Origin: a candidate division WOR-3 bacterium
GTDB taxonomy: Bacteria > Hydrothermota > Tepidihabitantia > Tepidihabitantales > Tepidihabitantaceae
NCBI GenBank assembly: GCA_965648905.1
Contig: CBFGIT010000008.1
Span: 22,255 to 86,254, forward strand
DNA: 64,000 nucleotides
Direction: 5' to 3'
Shown: positions 13,599 to 49,310 of the stretch, one piece after another
Position numbering within the stretch: position 1 is the stretch's first letter
How the letters are laid out: every line of letters begins with the position of its first letter
Position numbers and translations under genes: made by a program
The notes under the pieces: model-generated
What the model was told of the DNA's origin: nothing
The model's input: the letters and a program-made list of their open reading frames with translations, nothing else
Database searches by the model: none

Positions 13599-14671
13599 AA
13601 CCCGGCATCATCACGGCCCAAGAACTGGCTCGGCTCGTGGCCGAGTGGGCCAAGACCAGCGCGGTCTTTGCCCCGGTCAGGGTGAAGAACTGGACCGAGT
13701 TCCGGCGCATATCTTCGCTCGGCGAGGCCGACCTTACGCGCGTGAACACCAAGCTGTCTGCCCGCACTCTGCTCTTTCCTCAGTGCGAGACGATGTTCCG
13801 GTTCAGGACTGACCGGCCGGCAGACCCAGAAGAACCGGCCCTGCCTGAGAAACAGGTCATCCTCGGTATTCGTCCGTGTGATGCTGCCGGCATCGCACTG
13901 CTCGACAAGTTCTTCTGTGGTCAGGGCGAAACCGACACCTACTACCAGCGCCGCCGCGCCAAGACGGTGCTTGTCGGCCTTGCCTGCAATGCTCCGGCCG
14001 ACACCTGCTTCTGCTTGGCAGTTGGTGGTTCACCGGCAGGCTTGCGCGGGCTCGACCTGCTGCTCACCGACTTGGGCGACAGGTACCTGGCTGAACCAGT
14101 TACCGACGCCGGCGCTGCCCTTCTGATACCAATCGGAGAGACTCTCAGGCCGGCAACCGATGCTGATACGGCGAAGAAGCAGGAACTGGCCGAGCAGGCC
14201 GGCGCTGCGATTACCGGGCGCATCGACACCCCAAGACTCAAGGCCCTGCTCGACAACTCAGACCAGAGCCCGGTATGGGAGGAACTCAGCCTCGCCTGCG
14301 TCAACTGCGGAGCCTGCACCTTTGTCTGCCCGACCTGCCATTGCTTCGACGTCACGGACGAGACCGGCAAAGGCCAGGGCGCGCGCATCAGGGTCTGGGA
14401 CACCTGTCAGGCCTGCCTTTACTCCCAGCACGCCTCAGGCCACAACCCGCGTGCCACTCCTGCGGCCCGATTCCGCAACCGGACCATGGACAAGTTCAAG
14501 TACACGGTCGAAATATACGGCGAAGTCTCCTGCGTCGGCTGCGGCCGCTGCATCATCGAGTGTCCAGCCGGGATTGACGTTAGAGAAACGGTGCAGACGT
14601 TGACCGCAGCACTGCAGGCAGAACCGGAGCCGGACGCAGTGCAGAAGGCAAAGTGCAAAACAGGCAACTGA
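13595..14671 (+). CDS. 4Fe-4S dicluster oxidoreductase subunit, sulfhydrogenase-beta/AsrA/FlxB-like
   Basis: 358 aa. CVNCGACTFVCPTCHCFD and CVGCGRCIIECPAGIDV motifs. N-terminus resembles AsrA/HydB. Confidence 0.7.
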   Translation: MKPGIITAQELARLVAEWAKTSAVFAPVRVKNWTEFRRISSLGEADLTRVNTKLSARTLLFPQCETMFRFRTDRPADPEEPALPEKQVILGIRPCDAAGIALLDKFFCGQGETDTYYQRRRAKTVLVGLACNAPADTCFCLAVGGSPAGLRGLDLLLTDLGDRYLAEPVTDAGAALLIPIGETLRPATDADTAKKQELAEQAGAAITGRIDTPRLKALLDNSDQSPVWEELSLACVNCGACTFVCPTCHCFDVTDETGKGQGARIRVWDTCQACLYSQHASGHNPRATPAARFRNRTMDKFKYTVEIYGEVSCVGCGRCIIECPAGIDVRETVQTLTAALQAEPEPDAVQKAKCKTGN

Positions 14672-15021
14672 CATTGAGGGACCTGAAGGAACGGCTATTG
14701 GACTTCGCCACTGTGTGCTTGAAACTGCACGGCAAGCTGGGTCGCACTGTGCCCGGCCGGTACATTGGCGGTCAGATGATGCGCTCGAGTTCTTCTGCCG
14801 GAGCCAACTACTACGAGGCCTGTGGTGCGGAAAGCCGGGCGGACTTTGCCCACAAACTCCAGATCGTACTCAAAGAACTGCGCGAGACTGAGTACTGGCT
14901 GAAGCTCGCCGGTCGAGGCGGCCTACTCTCGCCGGATGACGTCAAACTAGCCGCAACCGAAGCGGACGAACTGGCTCGCATCATCGCTAAATCTGTCCTT
15001 ACTACCAAGTCGAGAACGTGA
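14653..15021 (+). CDS. Four-helix-bundle protein (TIGR02436 / 23S rRNA intervening-sequence protein family), copy 1
   Basis: GQMMRSSSSAGANYYEACGAESRADFAHKLQIVLKELRETEYWLKL is the family signature. Paralogous to 36835..37203. Inserted between the flxB-like and flxA-like genes. Confidence 0.75.
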   Translation: MQNRQLTLRDLKERLLDFATVCLKLHGKLGRTVPGRYIGGQMMRSSSSAGANYYEACGAESRADFAHKLQIVLKELRETEYWLKLAGRGGLLSPDDVKLAATEADELARIIAKSVLTTKSRT

Positions 15022-15082
15022 TGAGCCTGCGTCCCGGTTTTGCCTTGCCCGTTCTGCACTTTGACTTGACCATTGCATCCTC

Positions 15083-15919
15083 ATGAATCCCTATCTCCCG
15101 ACACCTGTCAAGGTCGCCCGCGTCACCGTTGAGAACGACGCCCGCGACCTCAAGACCTTCGACCTCTCGTTTGTCGAACCCGAGGCCCGCAAGTCATTCA
15201 ACTTCATTCCGGGCCAGTTCGCTTTCCTCTCCATCCTCGGCGTGGGCGAAGCGCCGTTCGGCATCGCCTCTGCCCCTTCCGAAGAACTAATCAAGTACAC
15301 GGTCAAGCGGGTCGGTACCTTCACGACTGCGCTGCACGAGCTGGAACCGGGCGCGGTCGTCGGCATGCGCGGGCCCTGGGGCAACTCCTACCCATTTGAC
15401 CTGATGCAGGGCAAAGACGTCGTCATCGTCTCCGGCGGCTTCTCGTTCACCACCCTGCGCTCGACCATCGTCTATCTGCTCGACCCGGCCCGCCGGTCCC
15501 AGTTCGGCAGGATAACTGCGGTCTACGGTGCCCGCTCGAGCGGCGAGCTGCTCTACAAAGACGAAATCAAAGCCTGGGAATCAAGCCCCGACCTTGACCT
15601 GCACCTCTGCGTTGACCGGCTCGGCGGTGCGGCCTGGCCTAAGACCGAAGGCTTAGTCCCCAACGTGCTCAAACAGGTTGCGCCCTCAGCCGCAAACGCG
15701 GTCGCACTGGTCTGCGGTCCGCCGGTCATGATTCGCTTCACCCACCCGGTCCTGGAGCAGCTCGGATTCAGGCCGGAACATGTTTTTCTATCACTGGAGA
15801 ACCGGATGAAATGCGGCATCGGCAAATGCGGCCACTGCAACATCGGGCCCAAGTACGTCTGTAAAGACGGCCCGGTCTTCTCCTACGCCCAGCTCAAGAC
15901 CCTCCCGGCCGAGTACTAA
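15083..15919 (+). CDS. FAD/NAD(P)-binding oxidoreductase subunit with C-terminal 2Fe-2S (HydG/AsrB/FlxA-like)
   Basis: Ferredoxin-reductase-type FAD- and NAD-binding folds. C-terminal CGIGKCGHCNIGPKYVCKDGPVF. Confidence 0.8.
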   Translation: MNPYLPTPVKVARVTVENDARDLKTFDLSFVEPEARKSFNFIPGQFAFLSILGVGEAPFGIASAPSEELIKYTVKRVGTFTTALHELEPGAVVGMRGPWGNSYPFDLMQGKDVVIVSGGFSFTTLRSTIVYLLDPARRSQFGRITAVYGARSSGELLYKDEIKAWESSPDLDLHLCVDRLGGAAWPKTEGLVPNVLKQVAPSAANAVALVCGPPVMIRFTHPVLEQLGFRPEHVFLSLENRMKCGIGKCGHCNIGPKYVCKDGPVFSYAQLKTLPAEY

Positions 15920-34757: not shown

Positions 34758-35614
34758 CCGACCACCTCGGCGGCCCGCAGCCGCGCACTCCTTGCCCGGG
34801 GATTGCGCCGCACCTCATCCGGCCCGGGCGCCACTGCCTTGCGCGTCAGCACCCGCAGCCGCGTGCCGGCCGAGCCAAAGGCCTGCTTCACCAGACGTGC
34901 CTCGAGTGAATGATAGCAGATCGTTACTAACCTTCCGCCGCGCACCAGTACTTCAAGTGCCGCGGCCAGACCCATTCGCACCGCCCCAAGCTCATCATTG
35001 ACGGCAATCCGCAGTGCCTGAAACACCCGCGGCAGAGCCCGACGGACGAATCGCCCGGGCAAGACCTGCCGGACCACTCTAACCAGGTCCTGGGTCGTGC
35101 GTATCCGACTCCGCGCCCCGTGCACCACTCGGGCAATCCGGCCGCTCATCGGCTCCTCGCCATAGTCCCGCAACAGACTCTTGAGCTCTCGTTCCGGAGT
35201 CCTTCGCACCAGCTCAAGCGCGCTCTGCCGCTTGCCCGCCTGGTCAAACCGCATGTCCAGCGGCCCGTCATACTGATGACTGAATCCCCGGCCCGGCTCC
35301 TGCAACTGGTGAAGCGATACCCCGAAGTCAAAGAACACACCCGTCACCGGTCCAAGCCCAAGACGCTGGACAATCGACGCCATGTCCACGTAGCTGCTCT
35401 GAACCAGCGCTACGTTGTTGTAACCACTGAGTGCTTTCGAGGCCTCGGCAATCGCGTCCGGGTCAACGTCCAACCCCAGGACGAAGCGCGCCCCGGCATC
35501 AAGAATGGCGCGGGCGTGCCCTCCTCCCCCGACCGTTGCGTCAATCACTGTTCCGGTCTCGGGCCTGAGGAACTCCAGCACCTCATTGACCATCACCGGC
35601 TCGTGAAACATCAT
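34754..35614 (-). CDS. rsmH: 16S rRNA (cytosine1402-N4)-methyltransferase RsmH/MraW
   Basis: MMFHEPVMVNEVLEF...DATVGGGGHARAIL. Start set at the MM pair, which removes the overlap with mraZ. Confidence 0.9.
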   Translation of the reverse strand: MMFHEPVMVNEVLEFLRPETGTVIDATVGGGGHARAILDAGARFVLGLDVDPDAIAEASKALSGYNNVALVQSSYVDMASIVQRLGLGPVTGVFFDFGVSLHQLQEPGRGFSHQYDGPLDMRFDQAGKRQSALELVRRTPERELKSLLRDYGEEPMSGRIARVVHGARSRIRTTQDLVRVVRQVLPGRFVRRALPRVFQALRIAVNDELGAVRMGLAAALEVLVRGGRLVTICYHSLEARLVKQAFGSAGTRLRVLTRKAVAPGPDEVRRNPRARSARLRAAEVVG

Positions 35615-36143
35615 CCTGCTGAGGCTCGGTCTTTGGGTTCTGGCCACAAGCGGTACCGCTCACGACTTCGGGTCTGTTGCCCTGGGGCCTGAGACGGTCG
35701 AGTCTTGTAAGGTCGTCATCATACTGGCTGTCTGCCGACTGGAAGTACGTGCGATAACGTGTTGGCTCCCAGACCTCGAAAAACGGCCCGACCCCGATTA
35801 TCACTGCGGAATCGGTAATGCCGGTCACGTCCTTGAGGTTCTTGGGGATAAGAATCCGACCCTGGCTGTCCAACTCGACCTCGCGCGACTGTGACAACCT
35901 GGTCCGGCGCAGCCGCCGCGCCTGTGGGTCATAGAGCGGCACCCCGCCCATCACTTCCTCGACGTGCCTGCGCCAACCTTCGGCAGTGTGTACCTCTATG
36001 CAGCAGTCCGGCCCTCGCGCCATAACAACCCTATCACCGTCCACCAACCGCATCTGCTTGCGGAACGCGTGAGGAACTGCTACCCGGCTCTTCGGGTCAA
36101 CTGCATGAACAAACTCACCAACACAGACCGGCTCAGGACTATC
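35583..36143 (-). CDS. mraZ: Transcriptional regulator MraZ
   Basis: Two MraZ repeats (VDPKSRVAVPHAFRKQM... and LDSQGRILIPKNLKDV...). Start GTG 36143 preferred over GTG 36167 because GTGG repeats (putative operator) lie across 36141-36170. Confidence 0.8.
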   Translation of the reverse strand, partial: DSPEPVCVGEFVHAVDPKSRVAVPHAFRKQMRLVDGDRVVMARGPDCCIEVHTAEGWRRHVEEVMGGVPLYDPQARRLRRTRLSQSREVELDSQGRILIPKNLKDVTGITDSAVIIGVGPFFEVWEPTRYRTYFQSADSQYDDDLTRLDRLRPQGNRPEVVSGTACGQNPKTEPQQDDVSRAGDGQ

Positions 36144-36170
36144 CACGCGAGTCCACCACTTTTCCACACT
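36141..36170 (-). promoter_or_regulatory. Three GTGG direct repeats at ~10-bp spacing (putative MraZ operator) at the mraZ 5' end
   Basis: Minus strand: GTGTGGaaaaGTGGTGGactcGCGTGGata. Upstream sigma70-like TTGACA (plus 36237-36232), 17-nt spacer, TAGACT (plus 36214-36209). Confidence 0.35.
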
Positions 36171-36614
36171 GGTACTTGCGGTGAATTGTACTCATAGACA
36201 CCTGTATGCAGTCTATCACCACCATGCCTGCCTGTCAACTTCGGCTTTTGAGAATCACTAAGTCCGTAAGTCTTAGCCAAATAATATATTAACATATCCT
36301 CTGATACTGATGCTCGGTTCAGTACGCTTCTGGCCAGGCATCTGCTGCAGTCCGTGTCCCGCACCGTGTTCCGTGTCAGGCATCCTGCACTTTGAAGCCT
36401 GCATTCTGCCCTGGCAGCAATAGCGCGCTGGCCTGGTCATTGAGGCTTGGGCTTTACCACTCCCCTCCATCCGCCCTCTGCTGCCCGACACCCTACGACT
36501 CGGTCATTGCAGTCTGCACCATGCCCTCCGTGCTTGACTTCACCGCGCCCCGGCCTATATTTCGGGTCTATGCGGAATGGCGAGCAGCCCGACCAGAACC
36601 AGCTCATCCGGCGC

Positions 36615-36800
36615 GATGTTCTACCCTATGCCGAGGGCGTCTGTGTGAACGAGAGCAAGACCAAGATAGGCTACGAAATCAGCTTCAACCGCTACTTCTA
36701 CAAACCCCAGCCGCTTCGGACGCTCGAACAAATCCGCGCCGACATCCTGGCGTTGGAGAAGGAAACGGAAGGACTGCTGGACGAGATAGTCGGAAAGTGA
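36615..36800 (+). pseudogene. C-terminal remnant of a type I restriction-modification methyltransferase (HsdM-like) gene
   Basis: Only the last ~60 codons of ORF 36447..36800 look like protein: DVLPYAEGVCVNESKTKIGYEISFNRYFYKPQPLRTLEQIRADILALEKETEGLLDEIVGK, which matches the HsdM C-terminal NRYFY...LEEI pattern. The upstream part of the ORF is low-complexity non-protein-like. Confidence 0.45.
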
Positions 36801-37497
36801 TGAATGATGAGTGATGAATTATGAGCGGTGAAAGATGAGTACTCAACGCGGACAGAAGCTGACAGAAAGGACGCGGGAGTTCGCGCTACGGGTGATTCGC
36901 CTGTGCTCGGAACTGCCCAAATCTACGGTTGCTCAAGTTATCGGCAAGCAGATGCTCCGGGCCGGGACATCGGTTGGCGCGCACTATCGCGAAGCCGTGC
37001 GCAGTCGGTCTGACGCAGAGTTTGTCAGCAAGCTCGAAGGCGCCCTGCAGGAAGCAGAGGAGACGCGCTACTGGCTTGAACTTCTGACAGCCGAGCGACT
37101 GGGTCCGCAGTCGGAACTTGCGGCCCTAGCGTCCGAGATTGATGAACTTGCCGCCATGCTCGTCGCCAGCGTCAAAACCGTCAAGGCACGAACGAAGCGA
37201 TAAACTCGGAATGATAAGCGATGAATTCAGCCGACAGAGAACGCGGCGGCCTGTAGGTTCGCTTCTTGCTCATCCTCAATCATTCCCTGCTCCTCGGATG
37301 ACCCGCCGCAACCGATGAATACCCCGCGTTCGTCACAAGAAATTCATCGCCTGTCTTCTCGCATCGTATGAGCACTCAGCACCCATCATTCATCACTCCG
37401 CGCTCTCCTTCAGCCTCCCCCACTCAGAACTCATCACTCATTACTCATCGTTCTCCTTCTTCCCCCACTCATAATTCATCATTCATAACTCATCACT
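36796..37497. repeat. Imperfect ~30-bp inverted repeats (27/30) flanking four-helix-bundle gene copy 2, plus additional degenerate TCATCACTCAT-type copies at 37385-37450
   Basis: Left arm 36796-36825 AGTGATGAATGATGAGTGATGAATTATGAG. Right arm 37468-37497 CTCATAATTCATCATTCATAACTCATCACT. Confidence 0.6.
36835..37203 (+). CDS. Four-helix-bundle protein (TIGR02436 / 23S rRNA intervening-sequence protein family), copy 2
   Basis: GKQMLRAGTSVGAHYREAVRSRSDAEFVSKLEGALQEAEETRYWLELL. Clear paralog of 14653..15021. Confidence 0.8.
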   Translation: MSTQRGQKLTERTREFALRVIRLCSELPKSTVAQVIGKQMLRAGTSVGAHYREAVRSRSDAEFVSKLEGALQEAEETRYWLELLTAERLGPQSELAALASEIDELAAMLVASVKTVKARTKR

Positions 37498-38047
37498 CTC
37501 CTCTCCGCCCCTACCCTACCTACAAGCCCTCCGGCATGCCGTGGCTGGCTGGCTGACACCGTGTTCGACCTGACCTACAACAAAGAAGTCGCGTAGCGAC
37601 GCCCGGTCTCAGTTCGACTCGGTCAGCCTCTCGCTAACAGCAACTGAGAGCTCCTTTGCCCCTGAACAGGACCGTAGGCCGTGCTATGAGCAATGCCTGC
37701 AGTCGTGCTTCTCGAAGTACCGGCTTGAGTGCTTGGCAGCGTGACACCAGAAGTCACTTATGCTGCACTGGCTGGTGTCACATTGCCTGTACTCGGAGCA
37801 GTTCAGGACCAGATGACGACTGCTTGGACGGTGGCGATCACGCTGGACGTGCCATTAGGATTGCCGAGACGATGGAATCGAAAGATGACACCGGCCGTTC
37901 CGAATGGAATGACATTGGGAATGCTCTAGGGAACCGCCTGCCGGACGTCCCCAATCCTCCAGTTCAGCAGTCACTTCTTTCGCATAACCGATTGACCGCT
38001 AAACCGTTAGCCGCAATCAGCCGTATGTCGCCCAGTTAGACGACTTG

Positions 38048-38353
38048 TCAGCTTGAGCTGCCGGTGCCGGTTGCGGCCTCGACTTTGTGCTTCATCGACG
38101 AAGGCTTGTCGCGCCGGTCGTCGACCTTCATCACCGTATAGATGCGCTTGCAGCCGAGACGCTCGTATTCGTCGTGAATTGAGCGGATTGCCTGAAGTAC
38201 CGGTTCCCAGTCGCCCTGGATGCAGGTTCCCATCGAATTGACCTGGTACTCAAGGCCCGAGGCCCTGACTATCTCGACTGCCCGGCGCACAAACCGGCTG
38301 ACTGATGTCTCGCCGGTGCCGGTGGGGACAACGCTGATTTCAAAGATGGGCAT
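38048..38353 (-). CDS. MTH1187/YkoF-family protein (thiamine-binding/DUF77-like)
   Basis: 101 aa. ISVVPTGTGETSVSRFV...SGLEYQVNSMGTCIQGDWEPVLQAI pattern. Confidence 0.75.
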   Translation of the reverse strand: MPIFEISVVPTGTGETSVSRFVRRAVEIVRASGLEYQVNSMGTCIQGDWEPVLQAIRSIHDEYERLGCKRIYTVMKVDDRRDKPSSMKHKVEAATGTGSSS

Positions 38354-48973: not shown

Positions 48974-49047
48974 TACCCCGCGCCAGAATTGAACTGGCAA
49001 CCCACGGATTAAGAATCCGTTGCTCTACCAAGTTGAGCTAGCGGGGC
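48974..49047 (-). tRNA. tRNA-Lys (anticodon CTT)
   Basis: Hand-folded 74-nt cloverleaf: acceptor GCCCCGC/GCGGGGT, anticodon loop TTCTTAA, T-loop TTCAATT. No encoded CCA. Confidence 0.8.
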
Positions 49048-49067
49048 ACAAGTGCAGTACCACGCGA

Positions 49068-49141
49068 CGCGCCCGGCGCGACTCGAACGCGCAACCTGCG
49101 GGTTCGAAGCCCGACGCTCTGTCCAGTTGAGCTACGGGCGC
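49068..49141 (-). tRNA. tRNA-Arg (anticodon TCG)
   Basis: 74-nt cloverleaf: acceptor GCGCCCG/CGGGCGC, anticodon loop CTTCGAA, T-arm GCGCG-TTCGAGT-CGCGC. One U-C mismatch at the base of the anticodon stem. Confidence 0.75.
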
Positions 49142-49235
49142 TGCTAGAGACGCCTCCGGCCGGTCGCCGGACGTGAAGTGTAACGAAATCCGGCCAGGAT
49201 GCAACCATCGCCGGCGCTGACGAACACAACACGAG

Positions 49236-49310
49236 GGTGAGTGAGGGGACTTGAACCCCCAACATCCTGAGCCACAGTCAGGTACTCTAACCAGTTGAGC
49301 TACACTCACC
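49236..49310 (-). tRNA. tRNA-His (anticodon GTG) with encoded G-1
   Basis: 75 nt: extra 5' G pairing with C73, acceptor GTGAGTG/CACTCAC, anticodon loop CTGTGGC. Confidence 0.85.

Follow-up and report, generated by a model that had tools for sequence, protein, structure and literature searches.

A four-helix-bundle gene between inverted heptamer arms

The window analysed here, a stretch of 64,000 nucleotides from a candidate division WOR-3 bacterium, carries on its plus strand an intact gene (36835-37203) for a 122-aa four-helix-bundle (4HB) protein of the family named after intervening sequences (IVSs) in 23S rRNA. The gene sits between inverted arrays of tandem heptamers, and stubs of type I restriction-modification (RM) genes lie directly outside these arms. 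A reading made from the letters alone (the sequence-only reading) had placed the gene in this family, and the placement holds: the protein scores above the curated thresholds of both PF05635 (23S_rRNA_IVP; E 2.9e-21, 76.1 bits, cut-off 33.8) and TIGR02436 ('four helix bundle protein'; E 3.1e-26, 91.7 bits, cut-off 24). Residues 9-117 match PDB chain 2rld_A (E 1.3e-19), a chain labelled only 'Uncharacterized protein' that we take to be a four-helix bundle. The ratio of non-synonymous to synonymous substitution (dN/dS) between the focal gene and its relatives is 0.05-0.17, with dS largely saturated, and shows the protein to be under purifying selection. Neither of the two 4HB copies in the window matches a defence model of PADLOC-DB at E<=0.01.

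The 5' arm, F1 (36792-36838, plus strand), is a tandem heptamer array of the AGTGATG/AATGATG type delimited by repeat search, TRF and duplex energy. It contains the hsdM stop, a Shine-Dalgarno-like GGTGAAAG and the ATG start of the 4HB gene (36835); the heptamers run up to the ATG, as in the Coxiella IVS. TRF resolves it into 3.9 copies of period 7 (36798-36824) or 3.2 copies of period 14 (36796-36840). The imperfect repeats of about 30 bp that had been seen to bracket the gene agree at 27/30 positions (36796-36825 against the reverse complement of 37468-37497), and a repeat search widens the pair to 44 nt with 84% complementarity (36792-36835 with 37458-37501). Further degenerate copies noted on the 3' side turn out to be three tandem units of ~46 nt on the plus strand, R1-R3 (37373-37511; units 37373-37418, 37421-37466 and 37466-37511), in each of which the alignment shows F1 in reverse complement and then a tail rich in C and T (TRF: period 45, 3.0 copies, 78% matches). 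The repeat search also found a partial forward copy of the arm, F2 (37209-37227, plus strand, 89%), directly after the 4HB stop; it has weak reverse partners at 37270-37286 and 37341-37355.

Within the 64 kb these repeats are confined to the focal locus. An arm 21-mer occurs five times in the 64 kb with <=3 mismatches (0.00 expected from shuffles) and TCATCACTCAT six times with <=1 mismatch (0.73 expected), every time at this locus. As RNA, F1 and R3 form a duplex of -49.9 kcal/mol, compared with -22.5 +/- 3.9 kcal/mol for 500 shuffles (minimum -38.7); the values for F1 with R1 and R2 are -38.4 and -38.8 kcal/mol. Folding of the region, a check suggested along with the original observation, gave a minimum-free-energy structure of 731 nt that pairs F1 with R3 (z -3.1). 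The locus thus has terminal inverted repeats that can form a long stem around the ORF, as in an IVS.

Type I RM stubs at the bases of the hairpin

The upstream stub is the tail of a type I HsdM methyltransferase, as had been supposed from its translation. Its last 66 codons and TGA (36798-36800) occupy 36597-36800 on the plus strand, within an open reading frame (ORF) of 36447-36800, and the TGA falls within the first heptamers of F1. Nucleotides 36597-36794 correspond to residues 725-790 of a 792-aa plasmid HsdM (63.6% identity, E 6e-21; E 1e-19, 734 plasmid records) and to positions 596-660 of the 661 in the PADLOC MTase_I profile (E 8.3e-20). In the reference plasmid, hsdM precedes hsdS and hsdR. 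At the first base after R3 begins a probable relic of an HsdS N-terminus, YPTYKPSGMPWLAG followed by a stop (37512-37556, plus strand). These ~15 codons have no start codon of their own and belong to an ORF (37368-37556) that runs through all three 3' arms. By tblastn, 5/5 weak matches to YPTYKPSGMPWLAG (E 5-9) fall within genes annotated as HsdS, in one case at residues 3-18; the reference HsdS N-terminus, compared by eye, reads MTVASVYPNYRRPKMRWLPA. The identification is suggestive, the segment being too short to reach significance alone.

The two stubs meet the hairpin exactly at its bases, one on either side. Instead of a complete system of hsdM, hsdS and hsdR, the locus holds HsdM residues 725-790 of 792 and ~15 HsdS-like codons, and tblastn with one HsdM/HsdS/HsdR reference set found no further HsdM or HsdS remnant and no HsdR remnant in the 64 kb. 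The earlier description of a decayed type I RM locus is an overstatement, borne out only as far as the two stubs go. Its historical part is ambiguous: homology with the nearest genome stops at a break in gene order, so decay in place and import of a fragment cannot be told apart. Were a complete type I system to have decayed here, the cassette would be a passive passenger and its arms functionless, slippage-prone simple repeats. We consider this unlikely, though not fancifully so. The HsdM tail and HsdS-like head on either side, the position at a gene-order break with slightly lower GC, and the quick turnover of defence islands all speak for it; against it count the want of any other remnant in the 64 kb by that reference set, the exact coincidence of the stub ends with the hairpin bases, the full integrity of the 4HB ORF, the independent recurrence of a stub with a cassette in two other loci (L087 and L088, below) and the family-wide selection of the arms. 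Decay in place, moreover, is a matter of how the locus arose and does not conflict with the mechanism of the cassette that we favour below.

Heptamer arms across the family

Relatives of the focal protein were collected from 80 genome loci (55-71% identity; WOR-3, Chloroflexota, Planctomycetota, Verrucomicrobiota, Acidobacteriota, Nitrospirota, Cyanobacteriota, Bacillota and Pseudomonadota) and from four annotated plasmid loci. Arms were sought by blastn-short (E<1e-3) between the 150 nt upstream and the 250 nt downstream of each gene, with pseudo-genes placed elsewhere in the same loci as controls. A significant inverted repeat accompanies the gene in 56/77 relatives from >8 phyla, compared with 0/76 controls. 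The arms are nearly always tandem heptamers, as in the Coxiella IVS, and the rRNA-IVS architecture that the sequence-only reading saw at one locus is thus a property of the family. The heptamers themselves vary. We counted 29 different units, among which AAGGATG, AATGATG, AACGATG, AGGGATG and AGTGATG are common; cyanobacterial units are AT-rich (GATTTTA or GATTTAC), while those found elsewhere share the core GATGA.

Within a locus, the two arms tend to use the same unit. The top unit is identical in both arms in 43% of loci (72% with <=1 mismatch), compared with 11% (37% with <=1 mismatch) for arms drawn from different loci, so that the arms co-vary at the level of the repeat unit. This bears on the possibility that the arrays are two opposed sets of binding sites for the 4HB protein (pentameric, with a positively charged ring in solved homologues), serving autoregulation or the packaging of its own RNA or DNA, and not the two strands of a stem. 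Such a role would fit a protein under purifying selection whose gene is accompanied by arms in 56/77 relatives, and which has a homologue in the nucleic-acid-binding Avd of the diversity-generating retroelements (DGRs). It fits poorly with 29 units, ranging from AT-rich GATTTTA in cyanobacteria to GATGA elsewhere, alongside a protein that is 55-80% conserved, and the matching of units within a locus is what a stem predicts and a shared protein-binding motif does not. We therefore hold protein-binding arrays to be quite improbable.

The arms also have a consistent relation to reading frames. On the sense strand the 5' arm has stops in >=2 frames in 50/56 loci and ATG in >=2 frames in 47/56, whereas the 3' arm is stop-free in 47/56 and ATG-free in 55/56. 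Neighbouring genes are mostly co-directional with the 4HB gene, both upstream (67/80 loci) and downstream (60/79). In the 40 loci with co-directional genes on both sides, taking the first in-frame start as the downstream start, the stop of the upstream gene lies at a median of -0.5 nt from the outer edge of the 5' arm (<=15 nt in 28/40) and the downstream start at a median of 12.5 nt past the outer edge of the 3' arm (<=30 nt in 33/40), with a median arm-to-arm span of 449 nt. The focal locus shares this geometry, with the hsdM stop inside its 5' arm and the HsdS-like codons right after R3. Because the arms are inverted repeats, a sequence that is closed by stops on entry and open on exit would be met in either orientation, and the strong co-orientation is thus a sign that expression of the protein has been selected for.

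The layout of the focal locus is not unique to it. An order of F1, gene, F2 and reverse arms recurs in L093 and L189, and a gene followed by a forward copy and reverse arms, as well as multiple tandem 3' arms, recurs in the closest relatives L188 (80% identity), L189, L093 and L186. Amplification of the 3' arm seems to be recurrent, with three units of ~46 nt in the focal locus, three of ~72 nt in L186 and several in L188. A second case of a stub with a cassette is found in L087 and L088, which retain a tail ending in EELDFIINYDIKYRMGK and then a stop ahead of the arm; the tail resembles the C-terminus of a DNA methylase. The conserved EELDFIINYDIKYRMGK tail and stop precede the 5' arm in three contexts altogether (L087:4896-4994, L088:4708-4821 and L093:380-454). 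A 13-mer, AGTACCGCATGGG, is identical outside both arms in L087 and L093. It follows the 3' arm of L087, with a near-identical copy after that of L088 and a diverged copy after that of L093, and may be a one-off target duplication or a host junction that was carried along. L093 itself holds two 4HB cassettes (461-841 and 2089-2451; proteins 88% identical) that flank a HicA/HicB-like toxin-antitoxin pair in a span of 2.9 kb.

A second cassette and the exchange of its flanks

The window contains a second, divergent cassette (14632-15080, plus strand) between the genes for Fer4_22 and NAD_binding subunits of a sulfhydrogenase-like operon. Its 4HB gene (14674-15021, plus strand, TTG start) was detected by tblastn, the family hidden Markov model (HMM) and PF05635 (E 5e-16, 59.3 bits), and its product is 39% identical to the focal copy. 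The 5' arm (14632-14667) and 3' arm (15034-15080), both given on the plus strand, pair over 36 nt at 78% (14632-14667 with 15045-15080) and are built on a unit close to GCAGAAG. The reading frame of the Fer4_22 protein ends in the 5' arm, which supplies its final ~15 residues and its stop codon; the protein is 358 aa long, compared with 339-344 aa in cassette-free relatives.

Cassette 2 is present in some close relatives and absent from others, in keeping with the mobile or selfish cassette that the sequence-only reading had proposed. In L183, a WOR-3 metagenome-assembled genome whose flanks are 93-94% identical in nucleotide sequence, the site is empty and the host genes abut as TAGATG (L183:2581-2586). 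It is empty too in L184 and L185 (72% aa identity in the Fer4_22 protein, 74-83% nt; L184:4033-4038, GCA_900174595.1). The more distant L186 and L187 (78% nt) are occupied and colinear with the window through the cassette at ~80-85% (L186:3640-4262), with three ~72-nt 3' arms in tandem (L186:4056-4262). Against L183, the window loses homology at 14565 and regains it at 15122, ~50-60 nt beyond each arm. These short stretches of host coding sequence track occupancy and not overall relatedness, and in them the window resembles the occupied allele and not its closest relative. The cassette was therefore gained or lost by homologous exchange together with short host flanks. Exchange of this kind is also a plausible origin for the focal arrangement of hsdM tail, cassette and hsdS head, and for the methylase-like tail in L087 and L088.

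A different account of the cassettes is a mobile element acting at the DNA level, in which the arms would be terminal inverted repeats or single-stranded DNA hairpins (compare the ends of IS200/IS605 or integron attC), a transposase or recombinase acting in trans would move the cassette into gene junctions, and pairing in RNA would be incidental. Besides the presence or absence of cassette 2, this account draws on the scatter of relatives at 55-71% identity across >8 phyla, on the two copies in 64 kb of the window and the two in 2.9 kb of L093, on arm mismatches that are free of a sense-strand G.U bias, and on the 13-nt AGTACCGCATGGG outside both arms in L087 and L093. The hallmarks of a transposable element or a miniature inverted-repeat transposable element (MITE), namely target-site duplication and conserved terminal repeats, are missing. 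We found no general target-site duplication, the longest substring shared by the outer flanks in 62 loci being no different from the null obtained with mismatched loci, and 29 heptamer units of variable copy number are hard to square with one recognising enzyme. In addition, the sole resolvable event of gain or loss exchanged flanking coding sequence and so is homologous recombination, and neither the strong co-orientation nor the stop-to-start geometry would be expected from transposition alone. On balance a DNA-level element seems to us a doubtful explanation, with about the same standing as decay in place.

Gene neighbourhoods and the question of a defence role

The sequence-only reading placed 4HB genes between hsdM and hsdS in other genomes as well and thought that the association with RM might be meaningful. 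This did not survive comparison: no HsdM tail occurs in any of the 80 genome loci encoding 4HB relatives (0/80), and no 4HB gene was found within 4 kb in 71 metagenomic loci whose HsdM tails are 64-75% identical to the focal one (0/71; tblastn with 25 queries plus the family HMM, which detects both copies in the window). On these counts an order of hsdM, 4HB gene and hsdS was rejected as a common arrangement. Most neighbours of the relatives are housekeeping genes of very diverse kinds, among them those for ABC transporters, alanyl- and cysteinyl-tRNA synthetases, kinases, epimerases and a carboxyl transferase.

About 10% of the relatives adjoin genes for DISARM DrmD/DrmMI, HmaB, type IIG enzymes or cas genes. 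DISARM DrmD/DrmA-type helicases make up ~7-8 of the 80 upstream neighbours, and the downstream neighbours include DrmMI (3), type IIG enzymes (2-3), Cas1 (2) and PglX. The four annotated plasmid loci (L081-L084, from Chlorohelix, Pseudanabaena, Gloeocapsa and Planktothrix) are all in defence contexts; in three, a defence gene directly adjoins the 4HB gene on each side, and all four 4HB genes are annotated merely as 'four helix bundle protein'. Cultivable carriers include Gloeocapsa sp. PCC 7428 (plasmid pGLO7428.03, DUF1156-4HB-Swt1), Planktothrix agardhii (drmD-4HB-MTase) and Nostoc punctiforme. In L081 the order runs from a helicase to an N6-methylase, in L083 from DUF1156 to Swt1-HEPN and in L084 from DISARM drmD to a PglX-like methylase; the gene in L082 belongs to a cas locus, upstream of cas1-cas2 and ~1 kb after csx2. 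The arms in the cyanobacterial plasmids consist of the AT-rich heptamers GATTTTA, GATTTAC and CCCCAAT. The closest metagenomic relatives adjoin Mrr and YhcG genes, type III Res, HicAB and HEPN genes, and one lies between MTHFR and a methyltransferase. The 4HB cassettes thus appear to tend towards defence islands and have no specific tie to type I RM. Between the ResIII-RE_endonuc and 4HB genes, an AAA_15/AAA_21 ATPase gene and a 152-aa ORF are variably present when L087 is compared with L088 and L090, while the 4HB protein is identical; the region looks like a variable defence island.

A proposed promoterless cassette of operon transcripts

Our preferred interpretation, which we regard as reasonably probable, is that the focal element is a stranded copy of a widespread, promoterless cassette that dwells in operons, is of the same kind as the ORF-bearing rRNA IVSs and here carries along an hsdM 3' stub and an hsdS 5' stub. 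Lacking a promoter of its own, the cassette would be transcribed by read-through from the host operon. In the transcript the arms would pair into a stem of 30-45 bp and loop out ~450 nt, and the base of this stem would bring the stop of the upstream gene beside the ribosome-binding site and start of the downstream gene, which could explain how a host operon tolerates the insert. The 5' arm would end upstream translation and offer a start in whichever frame is needed, indifferent to the gain or loss of heptamers. The stem would hide the 4HB start unless a ribosome finishing the upstream ORF opened it, which would couple the translation of the two. By analogy with the rRNA IVS of Coxiella, the stem would also be a substrate of RNase III. 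Spread would proceed by homologous recombination of the cassette with tens of bases of host flank, as was seen for cassette 2 and may be supposed for the focal copy, where it would explain the exact hsdM tail and hsdS head.

Several observations weigh against this interpretation. No significant inverted repeat was detected in 21/77 relatives. At the focal locus the 3' arms begin 170 nt past the 4HB stop, compared with ~12 nt in most relatives; the three 3' arms and the intervening F2 may make the actual fold more complex than a single stem; and the copy, a relic that has lost its host operon, may be silent. For the cassette we infer, as opposed to observe, all of RNA pairing, RNase III cleavage and translational coupling. 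Mismatches between the arms show no excess of pairs that would be G.U-compatible on the sense strand (8 G.U and 14 A.C), so this test does not favour an RNA stem over a hairpin at the DNA level, and a DNA-level role of the hairpin is possible. Finally, the ORF of the Coxiella IVS is reported to be decaying and is probably untranslated (PMC4990558), in contrast to the strong purifying selection on the genes of the cassettes, and the rRNA and operon forms may work differently.

Surroundings of the focal locus

The focal region is flanked by two minus-strand genes: on the left mraZ (35583-36167; Pfam MraZ), the end of a cluster of division and cell-wall genes, and on the right a gene for a thiamine-binding protein (38048-38353; Pfam). 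Within ~6 kb on either side of the 4HB gene are encoded MraZ, RsmH, the thiamine-binding protein, FeThRed_B, glutaredoxin, NifU, a class-V aminotransferase (NifS-like) and threonyl-tRNA synthetase. Together with mraZ, the region upstream of it (36168-36321) is conserved in the nearest genome (GCA_900174595.1, 78% nt identity), and homology stops abruptly at 36321; relatives have unrelated genes upstream of mraZ, which places the relic at a break in gene order.

The DNA from the relic to the thiamine-binding-protein gene (37557-38047) is unassigned, with no conserved ORF and no Rfam match. The sequence-only reading had described lower-GC DNA with no convincing ORF downstream of the 4HB gene; the latter part is upheld in 37557-38047, and the fall in GC is only modest (0.54-0.57 compared with 0.60-0.64 in the flanks). 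A 127-aa ORF in this segment has no Pfam or PADLOC match and no real homologues among 1.84 billion representative proteins, in which it finds just one 21-residue match (E 6.7e-6). No Rfam family is found in 36100-38100 at E<=1, and at the Rfam gathering thresholds the whole 64 kb is free of rRNA. On the minus strand, a hairpin with a T-run that resembles a terminator (37588-37600) lies within the unassigned DNA, ~450 nt downstream of the thiamine-binding-protein gene, and may mark the true 3' end of that transcription unit.

The mraZ upstream region holds a promoter-like site that reads TTGACA-17-TAGACT with TG (36238-36210, minus strand). A promoter scan that returned 3 sites, with 0.8 expected from shuffles, gave a weak sigma-70-like match, TTGACT-16-TATATT (36534-36561, plus strand, 10/12); 10 nt after it comes an ATG (36571) in the frame of the relic ORF. 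This match and the 76-codon relic ORF that ends in the arm give a weak indication that the focal 4HB gene could still be driven. Elsewhere in the window, three tRNA genes are clustered at 48974-49309 on the minus strand (Rfam, 65 bits each).

Implications

The function of the S23p/4HB family and the origin of rRNA IVSs are questions that have stood since the early 1990s. We tentatively suggest, as a possibility well short of a firm expectation, that IVS-type inserts, far from being peculiar to rRNA genes, are one general kind of insert that bacterial operon transcripts loop out. Each would consist of a selfish or domesticated 4HB gene with its own heptamer hairpin, rejoin stop and start and so preserve translational coupling across ~450 nt, tolerate slippage through a 5' arm that works in any frame, be open to excision by RNase III and spread by short-flank recombination. 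If this were true, the insert would function in polycistronic mRNAs in the manner of an intron and would occur in hundreds of species. IVSs that encode S23p are a known kind; for their operon setting and geometry, and for heptamer-flanked 4HB genes outside rRNA, we found no description in the literature that we searched, which is no proof of absence. What appears to be new is that the element lies between protein-coding genes in many phyla, with the host stop at the 5' base of the hairpin and a start ~12 nt past the 3' base, and that arm units differ between loci and match within a locus. From the geometry and the unit matching follow predictions that can be put to the test, on processing by RNase III, on translational coupling over the stem and on tolerance of frame shifts.

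There are also consequences for annotation. 4HB genes in RM, DISARM, BREX-like or CRISPR operons are probably riders and not components of these systems, and the arms add spurious C-terminal codons to upstream genes, as in the Fer4_22 protein, which is extended by ~15 residues. The window itself is modest, holding one stranded relic and one live-looking cassette, and its interest lies mostly in the family-wide pattern.

Comparison with known systems

Integron cassettes and MITE- or REP-type (repetitive extragenic palindromic) hairpins resemble the present element in being small promoterless genes or hairpins between genes, in needing transcription from outside and in being present or absent among relatives. 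The 4HB cassettes differ from them in having two arms that enclose the gene, not a single attC, and in being without an integrase, a conserved arm sequence or a target-site duplication.

Avd of the Bordetella phage BPP-1 DGR binds nucleic acid. It is homologous in its four-helix-bundle fold and family, and a passage of PMC10053308 assigns Avd to PF05635. That assignment is what would favour taking the focal protein for the Avd accessory protein of a DGR. The focal gene is instead a stand-alone gene with hairpin arms; its neighbours within ~6 kb are division, cell-wall, Fe-S and redox genes with no reverse transcriptase among them, and the repeat search shows the arms only and no pair of template and variable repeats (TR/VR). 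We consider a DGR accessory role extremely improbable.

In their passage on the family, Zhang and Ye (2014, PMC3936711) count 18 genes of 23S_rRNA_IVP in cas loci. These belong to the same family and are co-directional within a defence operon, for example between cmr3 and cmr2. A CRISPR-related role is suggested for them, and the passage on the family does not mention flanking arms; in our collection, by contrast, most hosts are not defence operons and the arms are the constant feature.

The heptamers recall the STRR heptanucleotide tandem repeats of cyanobacteria, which Mazel and co-workers reportedly described in 1990 as dispersed and of unknown function. Both are tandem 7-nt intergenic units, and the cassettes in L083 and L084 use AT-rich heptamers of STRR style. 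The cassette arrays differ in forming inverted pairs around one gene family in many phyla.

The closest counterpart is the rRNA IVS, found in Leptospira, Coxiella burnetii, Brucella, Xanthomonas and bacteria of the candidate phyla radiation (CPR). It shares with the cassettes a protein of the S23p family (PF05635), terminal inverted repeats that enclose the ORF in a long stem, and tandem heptamers of variable copy number directly upstream of the start, and it is an insert looped out of its host RNA (PMC4990558 for Coxiella; a survey of CPR bacteria). The 23S IVS of Coxiella burnetii encodes a protein of the 4HB family within a terminal inverted-repeat stem of 28 bp and places 2-3 tandem GACAGAT heptamers, in numbers that vary among strains, immediately ahead of the S23p ATG; in vitro, RNase III cleaves it at the first of these heptamers (PMC4990558). 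The difference lies in the host sequence. rRNA IVSs are inserted in a helix of 23S or 16S rRNA, while the focal cassette lies between stubs of protein-coding genes, and the arms of the cassettes furnish the upstream gene with its stop and finish shortly ahead of the downstream gene's start, features that would be meaningless in rRNA.

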